Notes: generated from the letters alone by a model not told the origin. A stretch of DNA of 64,000 bases from Clostridia bacterium (GCA_017626295.1 JAGAJB010000008.1:48565-112564); one strand, 5' to 3'. Shown: positions 5,158-26,907, numbered from the stretch's first letter. Numbers and translations are program-made.

Positions 5158-6207
5158 TTAATATGATTCAAAACTGCCTTGTGCATCATCCGAAACAGGA
5201 GTAATCCCTAAATGGCGATACCCTGCCGGAGTTACCTTTCTGCCCCTCGGAGTACGCATTATAAAACCAAGTTGCATAAGGTAGGGTTCATAAACATCTT
5301 CTATTGTAACGGATTCTTCACCGATAAGTGCCGCAATGGTATCAAGGCCTACCGGTCCACCGTTATAATTTTCTATCATTGCTCTTAAAAGATTTCTGTC
5401 AACAAGGTCAAGACCCAGTTCATCAATCTCCATACGCGATAAGGCTTTTTGAGCATTTTCAACATCAATAACGCCGTTGCCCTTAACCTCAGCGTAATCG
5501 CGGGCGCGTTTTAAAAGGCGGTTAGCAATACGCGGTGTACCTCTTGAACGGGAGGCAATCTCCAAAGCACCGTCTTTTTCGGTTTCGATATTTAAGATAT
5601 TGGCACTTCGCTGAACAATCCTTGAAAGTTCCTCGGGCGAATAAAGTTCAAGCCTTAAAACAACACCGAACCTGTCTCTCAAGGGTGCAGAAAGTTGACC
5701 TGCTCTGGTAGTAGCACCGATAAGGGTAAATTTCTTTAAGTCAAGTCTTATTGAACGTGCCGACGGACCTTTGCCGATAATAATATCCAAAGCGAAGTCT
5801 TCCATTGCGGGATATAAAACTTCTTCAATACTTCTTGAAAGGCGGTGAATTTCGTCAATAAAAAGAATATCACCGTCATTAAGGCTTGTAAGAAGTGCCG
5901 CAAGGTCACCGGGTTTTTCTATTGCGGGACCCGAAGTAACACGGAACTGAACACCCATCTCGTTAGCAACGATTCCCGCAAGGGTTGTTTTGCCTAAACC
6001 GGGAGGACCGTACAACAAAACGTGGTCTAAAGACTCGTGGCGTTTTTTTGCCGCTTCTATATAAATCTTTAAGTTTTCTTTAACTTTTTCCTGCCCTACA
6101 TATTCATCAAGAGCGTGGGGACGAAGAGAAGTTTCTATATCATTATCATCTGAAATATATTCAGGAGCAATGATACGTTCTTCATCCGCTATGAAAAAAT
6201 CATCCAT
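5158..6207 (-). CDS. ruvB: Holliday junction helicase RuvB
   Basis: [11 protein letters not shown], Walker [10 protein letters not shown] and DEIHRL. It lies downstream of ruvA. Confidence 0.95.
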
Positions 6208-6230
6208 AAAAAATCTCCTTTAATATATTA

Positions 6231-6845
6231 TCAGAATCTTAACGTCATATTTTTTAATGCACCTTTAATCAGTTCTTCTACTGAAAGAGAGGGCGAAAGT
6301 TTACTTACCGCAACTGAAGCCTCGGTCTGTGAATAACCCAATGCGGTAAGAGCCGCAATTGCTTCAGAAGTGTTCGACATATTGTTAGCAGTATTAACCG
6401 CACTTGAAACGGCACTGCTTTCGTCGGATATAAACGAAACATTTGCAATTTTATCTTTAAGTTCCATTATAACACGCTGAGCGAGTTTGGGGCCGACACC
6501 GTTTGCCGCAGTAATAGCCTTGCTGTCGCCGGAAGCCACCGCTACCGCGAAAGCATCGGGAGAAAGTTCGGAAAGAATGGCGAGAGCCGCCTTAGGACCT
6601 ACGCCTGAAACACCGATAAGCATTTTAAAGGCTTCAAGTTCTTCTTCGGTAGCAAAACCGAATAAATCGAGAGCATCCTCACGCACGTTAAGGTGTGTAA
6701 AAACAGTAACATCGCTGTTATTATTTAAAGATAGTTTCGATAAAGTGTTGCGTGTAGTGAAGCACTTAAAACCCACACCGCCACAGGAAATGGCAACGGT
6801 TTGCTCGCCTTTATGTATTATTTTGCCCGTAAGGCTGTAAAACAT
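6231..6845 (-). CDS. ruvA: Holliday junction DNA-binding protein RuvA
   Basis: MFYSLTGKI N-terminus and HhH motifs (GVSGVGPKAALAILS, ANGVGPKLAQRV). It lies between ruvC and ruvB. Confidence 0.9.
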   Translation of the reverse strand: MFYSLTGKIIHKGEQTVAISCGGVGFKCFTTRNTLSKLSLNNNSDVTVFTHLNVREDALDLFGFATEEELEAFKMLIGVSGVGPKAALAILSELSPDAFAVAVASGDSKAITAANGVGPKLAQRVIMELKDKIANVSFISDESSAVSSAVNTANNMSNTSEAIAALTALGYSQTEASVAVSKLSPSLSVEELIKGALKNMTLRF

Positions 6846-18651: not shown

Positions 18652-19095
18652 ATGTCATCTTGCATCAAACAAAGAAGTTTTATTACTTTATTTATTCTCG
18701 GTATCCTTACACTCGGTATTTATCCCATCGTTTTCTGGCACAAACTTTCTAAGGAAGTTAACGTTCTTTGCGAAGGCGACGGAAAGAAAACTATGAAGTA
18801 TGTTTTCGTATGGCTTCTCAACATTGTTACATTAGGTATTTTCGGTCTTGTTTGGAAATGCAAACTTACCAACAGACTCAAAGAAAACGCTTCCCGTTAC
18901 GGTCTTAAATTCAGTGAAAGCGGTGCGCTTGTTGTAGTATTATGCACAGTATTCTTCCCCATCGGAGGTCTTTTCATTGCTCACTGCATTATGATAAAGA
19001 ACTTTAACGCTATGGGCGCTGCATTCAACGAATACAACGGTCTTATTGATGAAAAAGCAAAAAACAGCGTTTTTGCAGATGTTGATGAAGACTAA
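18652..19095 (+). CDS. small membrane protein, DUF4234-like
   Basis: 147 aa with repeated helix motifs (LTLGIYPIVFWHKL, VTLGIFGLVWKCKL) typical of DUF4234. Confidence 0.5.
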   Translation: MSSCIKQRSFITLFILGILTLGIYPIVFWHKLSKEVNVLCEGDGKKTMKYVFVWLLNIVTLGIFGLVWKCKLTNRLKENASRYGLKFSESGALVVVLCTVFFPIGGLFIAHCIMIKNFNAMGAAFNEYNGLIDEKAKNSVFADVDED

Positions 19096-19119
19096 TTTTA
19101 ACTGAATTACATATTATTA

Positions 19120-19164
19120 AACCGTGTTCAAAAATTGCGATTTTTGAACACGGTTTTTATTTTA
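19120..19164 (+). terminator. rho-independent terminator
   Basis: AACCGTGTTCAAAAAT-TGCG-ATTTTTGAACACGGTT followed by TTTATTTT. Confidence 0.8.
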
Positions 19165-19216: not shown

Positions 19217-19232
19217 CAATTATCTCTTTGAG
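19217..19232. repeat. attL core (CAATTATCTCTTTGAG)
   Basis: Identical 16-mer at 26506-26521. This copy is a duplicated rpsI 3-prime end without the rest of the gene. Confidence 0.8.
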
Positions 19233-19271: not shown

Positions 19272-19350
19272 AAAAGTCCTTTATTATAGCGGTTTGCTTG
19301 CTTTATTGTATCATATCGTTTTGTAAATTTCAAGACCGTTTTATATTTTG

Positions 19351-19382
19351 GGACATCAAACAGACATCAGCGGACATCAAAA
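19351..19382 (+). repeat. three direct (G/A)GACATCA repeats (candidate integrase arm-type sites, int-proximal arm)
   Basis: GGACATCAAA-CAGACATCAG-CGGACATCAAAA, immediately after the int stop codon. The same octamer occurs twice at the other island end. Confidence 0.5.
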
Positions 19383-19384
19383 CA

Positions 19385-20518
19385 CTATTGCAATTTTAAG
19401 GAAATCAAGTCTGCAACTTTTGCCTTTGCACTGTCAAGAACATCAGCATACACATTCGCAGTTGTTGATACATCAGAATGACCGAGCAATTCAGAAACTA
19501 TTTTCAAATCAATACCGCTATTTATTAAAAGTGTGGCGTTGCAGTGCCTTAAACTATGCAATGTAATGAAGTCAAAGTCTGTACCTTTGACAAAACGCCT
19601 GAATTGTGTGTTGAGTCCTGACCTATCAACATAATTGCCGCTATCGGTTGTAAATACCATTTCAGGAAATTTATAATCTTTTCCGAGTTTTGCTATCTTT
19701 TCATCATTGTATTGTTTCTGCTCTAAAAAGATTTTTGCCAAAATATCCGATAATGCAATATACCTATTACTTGTTTTAGTTTTCGGCGGTTGTAACCAAT
19801 GCTTACCGCCTACATCTGTTAGTGTGTTTTCAATGTGAATAGTTTTGTTTTCAAAGTCTATATCTTGCCAACGCAGAGCTAAACATTCACCCGAACGCAT
19901 ACCTGTATATAATAAAACTTTAATAATGCGGTTGAACTGTGTGCTATCTTCAACCATTTTCAATAAGTCTTTCGCTTGATGTTCATTAAGGAAAGGCTTT
20001 TTTTCTTTTGGTTGCTTTGCTTTTGGTAATATAACCGCTTTTGTGCAGGGTGTTTCTTTTATAAAACCCTGTTCAACGGCACGAGCGAAAATGCTTTGAA
20101 GTATAACATATACTTTTCTGCAAGTCGCAGGGGCATATTTGCGAGTCTTGAAAAAGGCAGTTATCTTTGCAGGGGTAAAGTCTTTGAGTTTGATGTTTCC
20201 AAGTTCAGGCAAAAGGTGATTTTTTATCTGACTTTCATAGTTATATGCTGTAATCTCTTTTAGTTCATTCTTTGCATAGTTATCAATAAACCATTCAGCC
20301 ATATCACAGAAACGCATATTTTCATTTAATGAAGTCATACCCTTGCATTTTCTTTCAAACTCAATAGCGAATTCGTGAGCAAGTTTTTCAGCCTTTTTCG
20401 GTGTGGTATTTTCAGGCGGTTTATATGTAGTTGTTTTTCGTATCTTCTTACCGTTCACATCAAGACCGAGAGAAACGACAATCTGAAAAGTGTTTCCACG
20501 CTTATTTACTGTTGCCAT
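19385..20518 (-). CDS. int: tyrosine site-specific integrase
   Basis: 377 aa. The N-terminal arm-binding-type domain (MATVNKRGNTFQIVVSLG) is followed by a catalytic domain with R (LYTGMRSGE), HSLRHCNAT and LGHSDVSTTANVYADV (catalytic Tyr). Confidence 0.9.
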   Translation of the reverse strand: MATVNKRGNTFQIVVSLGLDVNGKKIRKTTTYKPPENTTPKKAEKLAHEFAIEFERKCKGMTSLNENMRFCDMAEWFIDNYAKNELKEITAYNYESQIKNHLLPELGNIKLKDFTPAKITAFFKTRKYAPATCRKVYVILQSIFARAVEQGFIKETPCTKAVILPKAKQPKEKKPFLNEHQAKDLLKMVEDSTQFNRIIKVLLYTGMRSGECLALRWQDIDFENKTIHIENTLTDVGGKHWLQPPKTKTSNRYIALSDILAKIFLEQKQYNDEKIAKLGKDYKFPEMVFTTDSGNYVDRSGLNTQFRRFVKGTDFDFITLHSLRHCNATLLINSGIDLKIVSELLGHSDVSTTANVYADVLDSAKAKVADLISLKLQ

Positions 20519-21106: not shown

Positions 21107-21164
21107 ATATTGTTGTTATTATCATTATACACCATAAATTACTAATTGTCAACAACAACATACC
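21107..21164 (-). promoter_or_regulatory. consensus promoter of the repressor gene bracketed by inverted repeats (candidate operators)
   Basis: On the minus strand, TTGACA (21147-21152), 17-nt spacer and TG-extended TATAAT (21124-21129). TTGTTGTT (21110-21117) and AACAACAA (21151-21158) form an inverted pair, the latter overlapping the -35. Confidence 0.6.
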
Positions 21165-21297
21165 AAAAGCAGTAATATTTGGTCTTGAAATTTATTTTTT
21201 ACTATCATTGGTATTCACTGTAAAATAATTCTTAAAACAAGTATAATAAACACAGTGAAGTTGCAACGCCACTAATTTCTATGAAAGGAAAACTCAA

Positions 21298-23736: not shown

Positions 23737-23740
23737 ATAG

Positions 23741-23857
23741 GTTACGGTTTACAGCGGTTACAGGTAACTCTATGGGACAATAAAAAAATAAAAAAATAAT
23801 TTATTAAATTATTATGTTACAAAGAAATTTACCGTAACTCCTGTAAATTGCCGTAAC
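23741..23857. promoter_or_regulatory. candidate replication origin: imperfect inverted iteron arms flanking an AT-rich core
   Basis: The left arm is GTTACGGTTTACAGCGGTTACAGGTAAC (23741-23768). The right arm is TTACCGTAACTCCTGTAAATTGCCGTAAC (23829-23857), whose reverse complement is GTTACGGCAATTTACAGGAGTTACGGTAA. The spacer at 23779-23820 is about 90 percent A/T. The region lies directly downstream of the primase/ATPase gene. Confidence 0.5.
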
Positions 23858-23874
23858 TTTTAGAGGTGAAGCGT

Positions 23875-24087
23875 ATGAAAATACTGTTTCAAACGAAAAT
23901 CGGCACTTTCAGAGGTTGTCCGTGTGTGTTACAAAGAATAGATGATACGCCGATAAACTATGCTGAATGGTGCGTACAGTTTGCAGGTAACGGACATTAT
24001 TTTTCTAAATATGATGAAGCCGTTGCATATATCCGAAAAAGAAAATTTTTAAGCAACAAACAAATTGAATTGATAGCGAGGTGTTAA
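23875..24087 (+). CDS. hypothetical protein (island operon gene 1)
   Basis: 70-aa ORF from the ATG preceded by AGAGGTGA. The ORF track uses an upstream GTG at 23866. Confidence 0.45.
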   Translation: MKILFQTKIGTFRGCPCVLQRIDDTPINYAEWCVQFAGNGHYFSKYDEAVAYIRKRKFLSNKQIELIARC

Positions 24088-24089
24088 AG

Positions 24090-24257
24090 ATGACCGATTA
24101 TAACAAAATGCTTATTGACTTGTTAAATGAAAAAATTGATTTATTAAAAGAAAAAATAGTGCATTTAAATATTGAAAACGACTCTAAACGAAAGGAAATA
24201 AACCGCCTTAAAAGGCGTATTAAGGAAATGGAAAAACAGAATGATAATATTTCTTAA
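24090..24257 (+). CDS. small coiled-coil protein (island operon gene 2; below ORF-track cutoff)
   Basis: Manual translation gives MTDYNKMLIDLLNEKIDLLKEKIVHLNIENDSKRKEINRLKRRIKEMEKQNDNIS (55 aa). It starts 2 nt after the previous stop. Confidence 0.4.
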   Translation: MTDYNKMLIDLLNEKIDLLKEKIVHLNIENDSKRKEINRLKRRIKEMEKQNDNIS

Positions 24258-24313
24258 AAGATGTATTCAACGATTATTTGTGAAATCTGCTACAAAGAAA
24301 GAGGGTGTAAAGT

Positions 24314-24682
24314 GTGCAGAGGAAGAACGACGAGATTTTACTATCTGCTCTAATTGCGTGCGGCAGTATTCGAGCCGCTGCGAAAATTGCCGAATGTTCA
24401 GAAACGACAATCAGAACAAGGCTGAATGATGATGATTTTCGGCAAAGGTACGAACAAGCAAAAGGGGCGATTTTAACTGAAGCCTGCGACGCTATTTCTG
24501 CACGCTTAACCCGTGCTATCGATACTTTGTGTGAGGTGTTGGAAGATACCGAAAACGCCGCTACAGTTAGAGTATCAGCGGCAGACTCCCTGCTCCGTCA
24601 CGGTTTACGCTATGTTGAGGTAGCAAATATTCTTGCAAGATTAGAAGCCATAGAAAAGGCACAAAAAGATAACAATTATTGA
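24314..24682 (+). CDS. HTH protein, possibly small-terminase-like / packaging-redirecting
   Basis: GTG start preceded by GAGGGTG. The N-terminal HTH is LLSALIACGSIRAAAKIAECSETTIRTRLNDDDFRQRYEQAK, followed by a helical oligomerisation-like tail. This pattern is seen in phage proteins at the head of packaging modules. This is recognition only. Confidence 0.45.
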   Translation: MQRKNDEILLSALIACGSIRAAAKIAECSETTIRTRLNDDDFRQRYEQAKGAILTEACDAISARLTRAIDTLCEVLEDTENAATVRVSAADSLLRHGLRYVEVANILARLEAIEKAQKDNNY

Positions 24683-24683
24683 T

Positions 24684-25283
24684 TTGAAAGGAATTGATTA
24701 TATTATGACTACAAAAAGAGAGTTTTATTGGGACATCAGATGTATAGCAAATTCAACTATTGAGGATATGAACGAATTAGAAAAACAGTCAAAAGCCATT
24801 GAAAACAAGATTAAAAGCAAACGTTATACCCCTGATATTATTTCAAAAGAACTTATGCCTGAACTTCAAAATATCAAGCGTGAGATTAACAAGCGTAAAG
24901 ATGAAGGCTGTAAAGAAATTCGTACTCGTTCTGATGAATATATTGCAGAATTACGAAAGGCAGATGAACTCAACCCCGATAATTTAACTGATGATATTAA
25001 ACTGTTACAATCAGGAGTTGCTCTTTCAGCTGATGACTTGACAATGCTTTTTGACCGTAATACAGGCAATAGCACAATGCAAAAGTTAATTACCGATTAT
25101 GCAAAACAGCACAATAGAGATATTCAGCGTTTTTACAGACCGACTCACGCCGATTTGATTATAAGTGTCAATACAGTCCCTGAAGCATTGCAAACCGTTT
25201 TGAATTGGTACAATAAGCCGAGTGTTTACGAAAAACTAATCGGTGAGGGTTCACAGTTTGACCAATATTTTTGCAATGAATAA
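24684..25283 (+). CDS. hypothetical protein (island operon gene 4)
   Basis: 199-aa ORF from TTG. The likelier start is the ATG at 24705 (MTTKREFYWD). It is helical and charged, with no recognisable motif. Confidence 0.5.
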   Translation: MKGIDYIMTTKREFYWDIRCIANSTIEDMNELEKQSKAIENKIKSKRYTPDIISKELMPELQNIKREINKRKDEGCKEIRTRSDEYIAELRKADELNPDNLTDDIKLLQSGVALSADDLTMLFDRNTGNSTMQKLITDYAKQHNRDIQRFYRPTHADLIISVNTVPEALQTVLNWYNKPSVYEKLIGEGSQFDQYFCNE

Positions 25284-25566
25284 TAACATTAAGACAACGC
25301 AACGCCGTTTGCAAGACATTGAAAAGCAATTAAAAATAGAACCTATACCGAGTTTTCAAGAATTCAAAAGTGAGTGGGAAAGAATGGACTCTCTTTCCTG
25401 TTCCGTTCTTGCGGCAGAGGCAGAAAGCGGAGATTTTGAAAGTATGAGCCGAACAAGACAAAAATATATGCTTGCGGTTAAAACCTATTTACTTGAAATG
25501 GGTGTTATAAATGGCAATGAAAAAACTCTCCGAGAAATTGCAACGGAAATGGAGAATACAAATTGA
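25276..25566 (+). CDS. hypothetical protein (island operon gene 5)
   Basis: The ATG at 25276 overlaps the previous stop (ATGAATAA). 96 aa, helical. Confidence 0.45.
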   Translation: MNNNIKTTQRRLQDIEKQLKIEPIPSFQEFKSEWERMDSLSCSVLAAEAESGDFESMSRTRQKYMLAVKTYLLEMGVINGNEKTLREIATEMENTN

Positions 25567-25787
25567 AAGATATATTTTCACGCTTAAAAGAAATAGAACG
25601 CACGCAACTGTCAAGAGTCGCTGTGTTCTATCCTGACGGAAAAAGAGTTGAAGTCAATGCCTTAAAAGCCTTTAATATGGCTGTTAATTCTCCCGAAAAT
25701 ATCTCTTTTCAAGCAATAGATAACAAGGCTATGACTTCATTATTAAATGCCGTTAGGGAGTCCACATCAAAGGCGGTGGACGAATGA
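25563..25787 (+). CDS. hypothetical protein (island operon gene 6)
   Basis: 74-aa ORF. Its TTG start overlaps the preceding TGA, and its own stop overlaps the next ATG. Confidence 0.4.
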   Translation: MKDIFSRLKEIERTQLSRVAVFYPDGKRVEVNALKAFNMAVNSPENISFQAIDNKAMTSLLNAVRESTSKAVDE

Positions 25788-26011
25788 CCGATAAGGAAAA
25801 AGCCGCTATCTGTTTAATGTGTGATAAGCCTGAATGTACAGGTGAGGCAAAATGCTTTGCGGAAAGGAAAAAAGAGTATCTAAAGAAATATAATGAAGAA
25901 CGCCGAAAAGGTGAGCAAGCACTCAATTATGTTTGTAATGTGGAATACTCAAAAGCCAAAAGAAAAGCAAGAATAACGGCTATAAACAAACGTAGAAAGG
26001 ATAATGCTTAA
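25784..26011 (+). CDS. small Cys4 (CxxC-x4-C-x5-C) protein with a highly basic tail
   Basis: 75 aa: ICLMCDKPECTGEAKC followed by a K/R-rich C-terminus (KAKRKARITAINKRRKDNA). ATGA overlap with the upstream gene. Confidence 0.45.
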   Translation: MTDKEKAAICLMCDKPECTGEAKCFAERKKEYLKKYNEERRKGEQALNYVCNVEYSKAKRKARITAINKRRKDNA

Positions 26012-26293
26012 ATGAAAATAGCAAAACGTCTTGATAATATCGAGGCACATATTGAAATGCTGACAAAATATGCTCCAATTATTTTGGCTATTGATAAACA
26101 TATTCATTATGATGAACTGCCAACTGACGAATACAAAAGCCTTTATTGTGAGTATATCGGCATAGACCGAGAAACCTTTGAAAATGTGGCTGTTATGGTT
26201 TTAGGTGATTTACATATCATTTTGCGAAAAATCGAACCGCCTACAGATAAAGAACTTCAGGCAATTATTGCAGAGGTTGAAGAAAAGGTTTGA
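26012..26293 (+). CDS. hypothetical protein (island operon gene 8, last gene)
   Basis: 93-aa ORF starting immediately after the preceding TAA (TAAATG). It is followed by two hairpin/T-run terminator-like structures at about 26338-26372 and 26381-26417. Confidence 0.45.
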   Translation: MKIAKRLDNIEAHIEMLTKYAPIILAIDKHIHYDELPTDEYKSLYCEYIGIDRETFENVAVMVLGDLHIILRKIEPPTDKELQAIIAEVEEKV

Positions 26294-26430
26294 ATTAAAT
26301 TTGATTATTCCTTTATAGAGTCTCCTTTCTAAAAGAGAACCGTTCGGCATATTGTCGGGCGGTTTTCTGCTACAAATAAAAAGGCGGCTGACCGTAAAAT
26401 CAACCGCTTTTTTGCTATTTTTCTATCATT

Positions 26431-26455
26431 CGGACATCAAACGGACATCAAAAAA
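26431..26455 (+). repeat. two direct GGACATCA repeats (candidate integrase arm-type sites, int-distal arm)
   Basis: CGGACATCAAACGGACATCAAAAAA has the same octamer and orientation as the three copies at 19351-19382. Confidence 0.5.
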
Positions 26456-26505: not shown

Positions 26506-26521
26506 CAATTATCTCTTTGAG
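26506..26521. repeat. attR core (CAATTATCTCTTTGAG) overlapping the rpsI stop codon
   Basis: Identical to 19217-19232. It contains the last four codons (S-K-R-stop) of rpsI. Confidence 0.8.
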
Positions 26522-26907
26522 AACTGGGGTGCACGACGAGCGCCTTTGAGACCGTATTTCTTTCTTTCTTTCATTCTGGGGTCTCTTGTAAGAAGGCCGG
26601 CTTTTTTGAGGATGGGACGAACATCGTCTTCAGACTGAAGAAGTGCTCTTGCAATACCGTGACGGATTGCACCTGCCTGACCTGTAACGCCACCGCCGTT
26701 TACACGGCAAACAACATCGTACTTTTCAACACTCTCTGTAAGAGCAAGAGGCTGACGAACGATAAGTTTGAGTGTTTCAAGACCGAAATAATCGTCGATA
26801 TCTCTGTCATTGATTGTAACCTTGCCTGTGCCGGGATATACACGAACACGAGCAACTGATTTTTTTCTTCTACCTGTGCCGTAGAAATATGCTTTGCTTT
26901 CGTACAT
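26509..26907 (-). CDS. rpsI: 30S ribosomal protein S9
   Basis: 132 aa: [14 protein letters not shown] ... [19 protein letters not shown] ... [17 protein letters not shown]. Confidence 0.95.

Follow-up and report, generated by a model that had tools for sequence, protein, structure and literature searches.

A conserved operon of small genes in a Clostridia genomic island, probably the packaging module of a satellite resembling the phage-inducible chromosomal islands

Eight consecutive open reading frames on the plus strand (ORF1 to ORF8) fill positions 23875-26293 of a 64,000-nucleotide stretch of DNA (the window) from a metagenome-assembled genome (MAG) of an uncultured gut Clostridia bacterium (GCA_017626295.1, JAGAJB010000008.1:48565-112564), an Acutalibacteraceae-like, Oscillospirales-type anaerobe. 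They belong to a tyrosine-integrase-borne island that measures 7.29 kb between its attachment (att) cores and lies at the 3' end of rpsI. About 97% of the eight-ORF segment is coding, with only 80 of its 2,419 bases outside the reading frames and gaps of just 2, 56 and 22 nt. A first-pass annotation of the window had described the segment as one packed same-strand unit 3' of an origin-like (ori-like) region, and every tight junction that it quoted is present in the sequence: TAAagATG at 24085-24092, ATGAATAA at 25276-25283, TTGA at 25563-25566, ATGA at 25784-25787 and TAAATG at 26009-26014. The unit as a whole also holds up, with terminators at its end and an iteron-type ori upstream. GenBank labels all eight products as hypothetical proteins of a Clostridia MAG (MBO5462256-63), including the 55-aa coiled-coil protein ORF2, which had been taken for unannotated and is in fact recorded as MBO5462257.1. 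The lengths of 55-199 aa first given for the ORFs stand in that all eight are small; ORF4 is more likely to have 192 than 199 residues, since the public gene calls and the homologues use the ATG at 24705 and the TTG at 24684 is the less likely start.

A Shine-Dalgarno-like motif precedes seven of the eight starts; ORF5, which lacks one, overlaps ORF4 by 8 nt. A terminator scan found no terminator-like site on the plus strand within the operon, and downstream of ORF8 two strong hairpins follow each other at about 26334-26368 and 26377-26414. The first of these is kept in a divergent island (L010; related loci are numbered in this way throughout), with a compensatory U-to-C change. The eight ORFs are thus predicted to be co-transcribed and translationally coupled.

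We found that nearly all of these ORFs behave as genes. Pairwise Nei-Gojobori ratios of nonsynonymous to synonymous substitution rates (dN/dS), calculated against the copies in related islands, ranged from about 0.06 to 0.45 for ORF2 to ORF8, compared to 0.07-0.14 for the primase of the same island. ORF2 to ORF8 are under purifying selection. An identical ORF3 occurs on 21 contigs, and related islands are present in Acutalibacteraceae and other Clostridia MAGs from deer, sheep and other faeces; a related-locus search with a single alignment returned only five GTDB genomes. Presence/absence polymorphism within the close family is limited to ORF1 and ORF6. ORF1 is the one doubtful member of the operon, being found only in the close family and missing from several related islands. 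None of the eight ORFs belongs to the ordinary early or DNA-metabolism genes of phages, and conservation has been demonstrated for seven.

These observations bear on the possibility that the island is a decayed prophage, or a non-satellite element moved by conjugation or generalised transduction, and that its small ORFs are leftovers without a joint function. The size of only 7.3 kb and the lack of a known helper would suit such an element, VapE-type primases like that of the island also occur in integrative mobilisable elements, and a ParA gene in two of the related loci (L028 and L029) hints at plasmid-like maintenance. Yet many contigs and several MAG species carry the 13-gene element in nearly intact form, nearly all of its genes are under purifying selection and its att duplications are intact. 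Pfam and PHROG scans of the island detected no pseudogenes or fragments of structural genes, Pfam scans of its proteins gave no relaxase or other conjugation family, and neither ORF3 nor ORF4 had a match in 72,556 plasmids. We therefore consider decay or a non-satellite nature very improbable.

Of the eight ORFs, ORF3 alone can be assigned a function. The first-pass annotation had noted a 122-aa helix-turn-helix (HTH) protein as a possible counterpart of small terminase subunits (TerS) or a packaging-redirecting factor, and PHROG profiles, the modelled fold and the large-terminase (TerL) neighbourhood of its homologues all sustain the TerS reading. The window protein matches three PHROG TerS families, weakly, with E-values of 1e-4 to 5e-3 (family 2538 at 1.2e-4 and family 4044 at 2e-4). 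When 42 diverse homologues (57-94% identical) were searched, family 4044 was matched by 40 of them and family 2538 by 38, with a best E-value of 5e-8, and four independent PHROG TerS families in all were matched by most of the 42 members. An AlphaFold2 (AF2) model of ORF3 (mean predicted confidence, pLDDT, 83) places helices at residues 2-16, 19-26 and 30-37, as in an HTH, and then pairs two further helices, 40-77 and 83-119, in a long hairpin. As modelled, this HTH plus long helical hairpin matches the TerS domain plan. A sequence-profile search of the PDB with ORF3 gave chance-level matches only.

The strongest argument for ORF3 as a TerS is genomic context. In three 11-kb elements (L020, L028 and L029), the stop codon of the ORF3 homologue overlaps the start of a TerL gene of the Terminase_3 family (PF04466). 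The complete 30.7-kb phage PQ006093 has a homologue as the first gene of its rightward late region, two genes upstream of TerL, and this homologue aligns with ORF3 over the full length (hhalign probability 97.7%, E 2e-12). This TerL-adjacent position is seen for the homologues, not for ORF3 of the window itself. An HTH transcription factor, acting as activator of late or island genes within a regulatory or "moron" block that redirects no packaging, would be another reading of ORF3. It is favoured by the Pfam hints, which are only to generic HTH families and below threshold (HTH_Tnp_ISL3 at 0.0076, HTH_28), by a fold search that returned mostly HTH regulators at similarly non-significant E-values, and by the 80-aa ORF that separates the homologue from TerL in PQ006093; moreover, PHROG functional labels are inherited annotations rather than tests. 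Such a regulator is nevertheless hard to reconcile with the matches of most of the 42 members to four independent TerS families, with the classic terS-terL stop/start overlap of the three 11-kb elements and with the TerS-like domain plan, and the presence of a separate sigma-like regulator just upstream of the homologue in two further loci (L018 and L019) argues against ORF3 as a late activator. We regard the regulatory role as unlikely, and ORF3 is predicted to be a divergent small terminase homologue.

The genes downstream of ORF3 are linked to it across related loci. Homologues of ORF1 and ORF5 to ORF8 were collected from the fetched loci with local iterative hidden Markov models (HMMs), and co-occurrence was scored in 24 distinct TerS-like loci, retrieved by homology, that had at least 2.5 kb of downstream sequence, counting a gene when it lay within 2.5 kb. 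Downstream of the TerS-like gene, an ORF4-like gene was present in 21 of the 24 loci (15 of 18 when only the loci obtained with the TerS query were counted), an ORF8-like gene in 16, an ORF5-like gene in 14, an ORF6-like gene in 11 and an ORF7-like gene in 10. The loci without an ORF4-like gene make up one TerS subclade, the L015 type, which is also inserted at rpsI.

The module was found alongside four or more types of integrase and five or more of replicase, and it occurs in two gene orders. In a second lineage, which has a different integrase and replicase, the order is TerS-ORF5-ORF6-ORF4-ORF8-(ORF7). Profiles made only from the close family recognised the second-lineage ORF5, ORF6 and ORF8 at E-values of 1e-12 to 1e-33, and a 212-aa protein of that lineage matched the ORF4 family (hhalign probability 95%, E 3e-8). 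More generally, the related islands combine a tyrosine or serine recombinase, a repressor, a replicase (VapE, AAA_25, Prim-Pol or D5_N), a TerS-like gene and a few small genes, and distant TerS homologues always led to small islands of 5-7 kb. The conservation of ORF2 to ORF8 (at least seven of the eight ORFs) across islands with different integrases and replicases indicates that they are core life-cycle genes. The description of these ORFs as the cargo of the island was accordingly given up: the module persists while integrases and replicases are exchanged, and the island is without accessory cargo.

Several of the related loci have features of their own. The L020 (MT836267), L028 and L029 elements, the last two of which are uncultivated virus genomes (UViGs) of IMG/VR, carry the TerS-like gene and TerL together with two Cys-rich ORFs, an ORF4-like gene, an integrase, ParA, a primase-helicase and a weak head-completion-like gene; they have no capsid or portal gene. 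They could represent a satellite or phage-plasmid-like class with a complete terminase of its own. In L018 (MT837364, 1921-6736), a TerS-like gene, a 105-aa ORF and an ORF4-like gene lead directly into Gp15 (PF06854) and a tape-measure gene, and TerL, portal and capsid genes are missing from between the ORF4-like gene and Gp15. The record is marked "UNVERIFIED", and either an assembly artefact or an unusual gene order could account for this arrangement. In L019, a 6.3-kb scaffold (MT837714), the TerS/ORF4 module is accompanied at 5862-6295 by a predicted RelE/ParE-like toxin and a small antitoxin-like ORF.

Searches of sequence collections showed the companion genes of the TerS to be absent from ordinary phages. 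Among 50,697 GenBank phage records, ORF4-like genes were confined to three scaffolds of 6-11 kb, recovered from human faeces and deposited without annotation as "Bacteriophage sp.", each of which also carries a TerS-like gene. The deposition of distant relatives, with about 30% TerS identity, as faecal "Bacteriophage sp." scaffolds of 6-11 kb hints indirectly at packaging into helper-derived particles. ORF5 and ORF8 had no relative in 2.9 million IMG/VR contigs, where TerS patterns were not found either, and blastn of the island DNA did not match any phage.

ORF4 is the most constant companion of the TerS gene. Word-indexed searching yielded 26 homologues, and an exhaustive profile search gave at least 547 clusters (at 50% identity) with E-values of 1e-3 or below, 286 of them at 1e-10 or below, nearly all of 180-210 aa. 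In the model of ORF4 (pLDDT 91), a small helical domain comes after a long helical hairpin at the N terminus. A core at residues ~81-144 is about 90% conserved (TDDIKLLQSG...DL...RNxGNSTMQKLI), with the family-wide invariant motif TDDxKLL...RN.GN.TM..LI, and the variable N- and C-terminal thirds reassort independently of it. In islands that share ORF3 with 100% identity, the identity of ORF4 is only 63%, which suggests that the partner determining ORF4 specificity lies outside the island.

No consistent Pfam or annotated PHROG family was obtained with ORF4 and 35 relatives. A Phage_scaffold match was disregarded, being weak (0.0087) and restricted to one of the 35 members. The PDB gave chance-level matches in a sequence-profile search and none below E 0.3 with Foldseek. 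The best Foldseek match in BFVD was an uncharacterised 208-aa protein of "Siphoviridae sp. ctINK4" (E 6e-3, TM-score 0.55), which is probably itself a member of the ORF4 family, so that the match is uninformative. The suggestion that genes in this position redirect capsid size or interfere with packaging had been an analogy with characterised satellites and remains one, ORF4 being unlike the 80alpha scaffold, P4 Sid and P4 Psu.

It is possible, although we advance it tentatively, that the ORF4 family together with ORF2, ORF5, ORF6 and ORF8 constitutes an unrecognised, satellite-specific partner of a divergent TerS clade and a new packaging-redirection or helper-interference factor. The conserved ORF4 core would then engage the terminase or portal machinery and the recombining termini would set helper specificity. 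If this were true, gut and rumen Clostridia would harbour mini-satellites of 5-11 kb that satellite finders currently miss, a large hidden population for which ORF4 would be the marker.

The small ORFs, and ORF4 to ORF8 in particular, might instead be anti-phage defence or abortive-infection cargo that benefits the host. Satellites often carry defence genes (PMC10085698). The proteins have no known function, and the allelic diversification of the ORF4 termini is also typical of arms-race genes. As for immunity, which the first-pass annotation had raised, no meaningful PADLOC match was found: the best scored 13-16 bits, which is not credible, and scans with PADLOC, NCBIfam, Pfam and PHROG recognised no known defence family among the island proteins. 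As a rule, defence cargo varies from one related island to the next and is located at island ends. The genes discussed here, in contrast, are conserved together with TerS while integrase, repressor and replicase change from island to island, appear translationally linked to TerS and are under purifying selection, with ORF1 and ORF6 alone polymorphic in the close family. A defence function is, in our opinion, quite unlikely.

The remaining members of the operon are small proteins that match no nameable family, as had been noted at the outset: besides ORF3, none of the seven ORFs matched one in Pfam, PHROG, NCBIfam or PADLOC, and PDB sequence-profile searches with ORF5, ORF6 and ORF8 gave chance-level matches only. 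ORF2-like genes encoding 48-54 aa stand directly upstream of the TerS-like gene in ten other loci (L030, L034, L036 to L041, L043 and L048), and ORF5 homologues in L030 to L035 were matched at E-values of 1e-30 to 1e-33. The CxxC-x4-C-x5-C motif reported for ORF7 was found as described, its four cysteines being retained in the close family as well as in L010 and L030; ORF7 is a putative Zn-knuckle nucleic-acid binder.

The borders of the island could be placed precisely. A 16-nt direct repeat, CAATTATCTCTTTGAG, forms both ends, and the 13-mer core TTATCTCTTTGAG occurs exactly twice in the window, against 0.01 copies expected. In island-to-island alignments, homology between islands with different left flanks starts exactly at the left core, and this, together with the repeat pair, sets the length at 7.29 kb. 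The right copy coincides with the final codons, stop included, of rpsI (26509-26907, minus strand), from which it appears that the island integrates into the end of this ribosomal protein gene and regenerates it. The gene was identified as rpsI through PF00380 at the same place in a related locus (L001), and the same site is used by the close family and by the L015 island, whose integrase is 78% identical. Repeats containing GGACATCAAAC were rejected as att core, as the island alignment extends the homology 130 nt further left. These repeats, of the GGACATCAAAC(A/G)GACATCA type, lie just within both ends (19348-19385 and 26429-26455), are kept in all copies and are probably arm-type binding sites of the integrase.

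The left-hand genes of the island are listed in Table 1 with the other features. The integrase is 99% identical in related islands. In the repressor, PF01381 is confined to residues 13-68, with no S24 peptidase or other domain. In L002, L003 and L004 it is replaced by unrelated proteins of 199, 235 or 270 aa, while integrase, primase and ORF3 remain 97-100% identical to those of the window island; this replacement may reflect different helper phages and resembles the diversification of Stl. A perfect TTGACA-17-TATAAT promoter at 21124-21152 (minus) drives the repressor gene, and a weaker, divergent rightward promoter lies at about 21198-21226 (plus). Homologues of the 62-aa protein are present in most related islands, and its gene would, from its position, be Xis-like. 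Downstream of the primase gene, at 23741-23857, GTTACGG(T) on the left and two copies of CCGTAAC on the right stand in inverted orientation around an AT-rich core, with inverted pairs I5 and I6 and direct repeat D1; by comparison with the ori layout of phage-inducible chromosomal islands (PICIs; PMC6092414), this iteron region is a putative origin. Apart from the TerS families, Pfam and PHROG scans of the 13 island proteins revealed no structural or lysis family. The rest of the window is ordinary chromosome without a prophage, and no tRNA was found in it. To the left of the island lies a gene for a DUF4234 membrane protein (18652-19156 region), followed by a perfect 17-nt inverted repeat at 19119-19156, presumably its terminator.

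Table 1. Features of the rpsI island, with positions counted from the first base of the window.
Feature	Position	Strand	Evidence or remarks
attL core CAATTATCTCTTTGAG	19217..19232	.	Repeat count and island alignment
Tyrosine integrase, 377 aa	19385..20518	-	PF00589 (3e-30) and SAM-like N-terminal domains
HTH_3 repressor, 187 aa	20528..21091	-	PF01381 (6e-17); Stl/Rpr-like position
Two small genes, 60 aa and 62 aa	21298..21679	+	62-aa product Xis-like by position
Primase/replicase, 686 aa	21676..23736	+	PF05272, VapE-like (3e-47); PF22763, NrS-1 polymerase HBD (2e-18)
Ori-like intergenic region	23737..23865	.	Iterons and AT-rich core
ORF1, 70 aa, basic, 4 Cys	23875..24087	+	MBO5462256.1; least conserved member
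ORF2, 55-aa coiled coil	24090..24257	+	dN/dS 0.06-0.18; directly upstream of the TerS gene
ORF3, TerS homologue (predicted), 122 aa, GTG start	24314..24682	+	PHROG TerS matches, model, context
ORF4, 192 aa, all-helical	24705..25283	+	Unannotated family tied to TerS
ORF5, 96 aa, acidic	25276..25566	+	dN/dS 0.22-0.45; module member
ORF6, 74 aa, TTG start	25563..25787	+	dN/dS 0.12-0.5; homologues at E 1e-12 to 1e-14
ORF7, 75 aa, CxxC-x4-C-x5-C and basic tail, pI 9.5	25784..26011	+	dN/dS 0.11-0.38
ORF8, 93 aa, acidic	26012..26293	+	dN/dS 0.11-0.22; homologues at E 1e-26 to 1e-32
Tandem hairpins after ORF8, intrinsic-terminator-like	26334..26414	+	RNA fold -39.6 kcal/mol, z = -5.0
attR core, same as attL	26506..26521	.	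Overlaps rpsI stop and last codons

This arrangement is that of the Gram-positive PICIs (PMC6092414, PMC10085698), in which integrase and master repressor genes are read leftward and xis, pri/rep, ori and the interference/terS genes rightward (PMC6092414). In the window island, integrase and repressor likewise lie on the minus strand, and the 60- and 62-aa genes, the VapE primase, the iterons and the eight ORFs on the plus strand. PICIs are further described as occupying a specific att site never used by prophages, carrying island-unique genes and measuring around 15 kb; a helper protein inactivates their repressor, which is not cleaved in the SOS response, and they travel in helper-derived particles and interfere with the helper (PMC6092414). 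The searches of phages, IMG/VR, plasmids and protein families agree with the uniqueness of the genes, and the size does not agree: PMC6092414 gives about 15 kb and PMC10085698 a median of 9.5 kb, against 7.29 kb here. SatelliteFinder calls a PICI, of Type A or B, when at least four of five components are present, namely integrase, regulator, primase-replicase, capsid morphogenesis and TerS (PMC10085698). By other profiles, the island has the integrase, the HTH regulator, the primase and the TerS, with no capsid-morphogenesis homologue; the SatelliteFinder HMMs might miss a divergent TerS and a regulator that is not of the AlpA/Stl type.

The closest resemblance is to the Gram-positive PICIs and Staphylococcus aureus pathogenicity islands (SaPIs) such as SaPI1 and SaPIbov1, with which the island shares the gene order, a repressor without S24 domain that is swapped as Stl is, integration at the 3' end of a housekeeping gene, the absence of structural and lysis genes, and a majority of genes without phage homologues. 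Operon I of the SaPIs comprises terS, cpmA/B, ptiA/B/M and ppi. Unlike the SaPIs, the island is about half the size, has no accessory or virulence genes and no LexA box before the operon, encodes a TerS too divergent for Pfam, and resides in an uncultured Oscillospirales-type anaerobe rather than a coccus; it also shows no homology to the named capsid-morphogenesis and interference genes, the SaPI proteins themselves not having been part of that comparison. The PICMIs (phage-inducible chromosomal minimalist islands), found in Vibrionaceae, are similarly very small (6.1 kb compared to 7.3 kb), integrate next to or into a conserved gene and lack capsid-remodelling homologues. The PICMI has three core proteins, depends on virulent phages and has no terS, sid or ppi homologue (PMC10803314), whereas our island encodes its own TerS and a conserved module of six to seven genes in a Gram-positive-type genome.

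Like the capsid-forming PICIs (cf-PICIs), the island encodes a packaging protein of its own, and the TerS, TerL and head-completion-like genes of L020, L028 and L029 recall part of the cf-PICI gene set; the window island nonetheless lacks TerL, capsid, portal, protease and connector genes, and its 11-kb relatives lack capsid and portal. P4, finally, likewise combines a primase-helicase with a short hijack operon in a small integrative satellite, and Psu resembles ORF4 in being all-helical and about 190 aa long. ORF4 has no homology to Psu or Sid, however, and P4 has no TerS, its cos packaging being carried out by the P2 terminase. The island would thus form a new lineage within the PICI kind, known here from its genes.

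Taken together, these results lead us to interpret the eight ORFs as the distal rightward unit, that is, the packaging or hijack module, of a 7.3-kb PICI-type satellite in the 3' end of rpsI, a reading to which we give a probability of about two in three. The operon probably hijacks the DNA-packaging machinery of a helper phage, dependence on which is likewise probable. In this model, a helper phage protein would inactivate the non-cleavable HTH repressor, the island would excise and be replicated by the VapE-type primase, starting at the iteron ori. Expression of the operon would follow, probably as read-through that begins in the divergent promoter region at ~21.1-21.3 kb. ORF3 would oligomerise through its helical hairpin, bind a satellite-specific pac site with its N-terminal HTH and recruit the helper TerL, leading to headful packaging of satellite DNA in helper-made capsids. 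The 7.3-kb DNA might be packaged as concatemers in full-size heads, as for the 6.1-kb PICMI satellite, which is packaged as 8-mer concatemers (PMC10803314), or into smaller heads. ORF4, as constant TerS partner, and ORF2, ORF5, ORF6, ORF7 and ORF8 would be satellite-specific accessory factors, most likely adapting TerS to the packaging and assembly proteins of the helper and suppressing helper packaging.

A number of observations weigh against this model. The TerS assignment of ORF3 is one of remote homology, the window protein itself reaching E ~1e-4; no Pfam TerS model matches it, and its top fold match in the PDB, to chains of 2ao9 (a Bacillus cereus prophage protein and nonameric putative TerS), is not significant at E 0.3. 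No functional homologue was found for ORF4 to ORF8, and a scaffold-, Sid- or Psu-like nature of ORF4 was rejected, with hhalign probabilities below 1% against 80alpha gp46, P4 Sid and P4 Psu. The loci behind the co-occurrence counts are not a random sample, and islands of about 5 kb with a TerS ~60% identical to ORF3 (L015-L017 and L056-L063) lack ORF4 to ORF8, so that the companion genes are not universally required; islands of the L015 type carry ORFs of 72, 71, 108 and 42 aa in their place. For ORF1, dN/dS values of 0.2-1.4 come from at most 10 substitutions per pair. Upstream of ORF1, no sigma-70 promoter consensus was found in 23737-23865, and the eight ORFs may therefore be read through from ~21.1-21.3 kb. 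LexA boxes (GAACN4GTTC, one mismatch allowed) were absent from the vicinity of the operon and fewer overall than expected by chance. No helper phage was identified, and none lies within the 64-kb window. Excision, circularisation and encapsidation of the island are predicted from its genes alone.

To our knowledge, phage satellites have been studied in detail in staphylococci, enterobacteria and vibrios, and hardly any are known from strictly anaerobic Clostridia. On the interpretation preferred here, the island and its relatives would be a compact, modular satellite lineage in the Clostridia that dominate gut and rumen communities, with a packaging module invisible to Pfam-based annotation. 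This would extend a known concept and overturn none. The pair of TerS and ORF4 would provide a concrete marker for such elements in metagenomes, and the ORF4 family a defined, testable candidate for a new hijacking function. Such a marker may help to separate satellites from "small phages" in viromes and offer a handle on helper-satellite networks in uncultured hosts.

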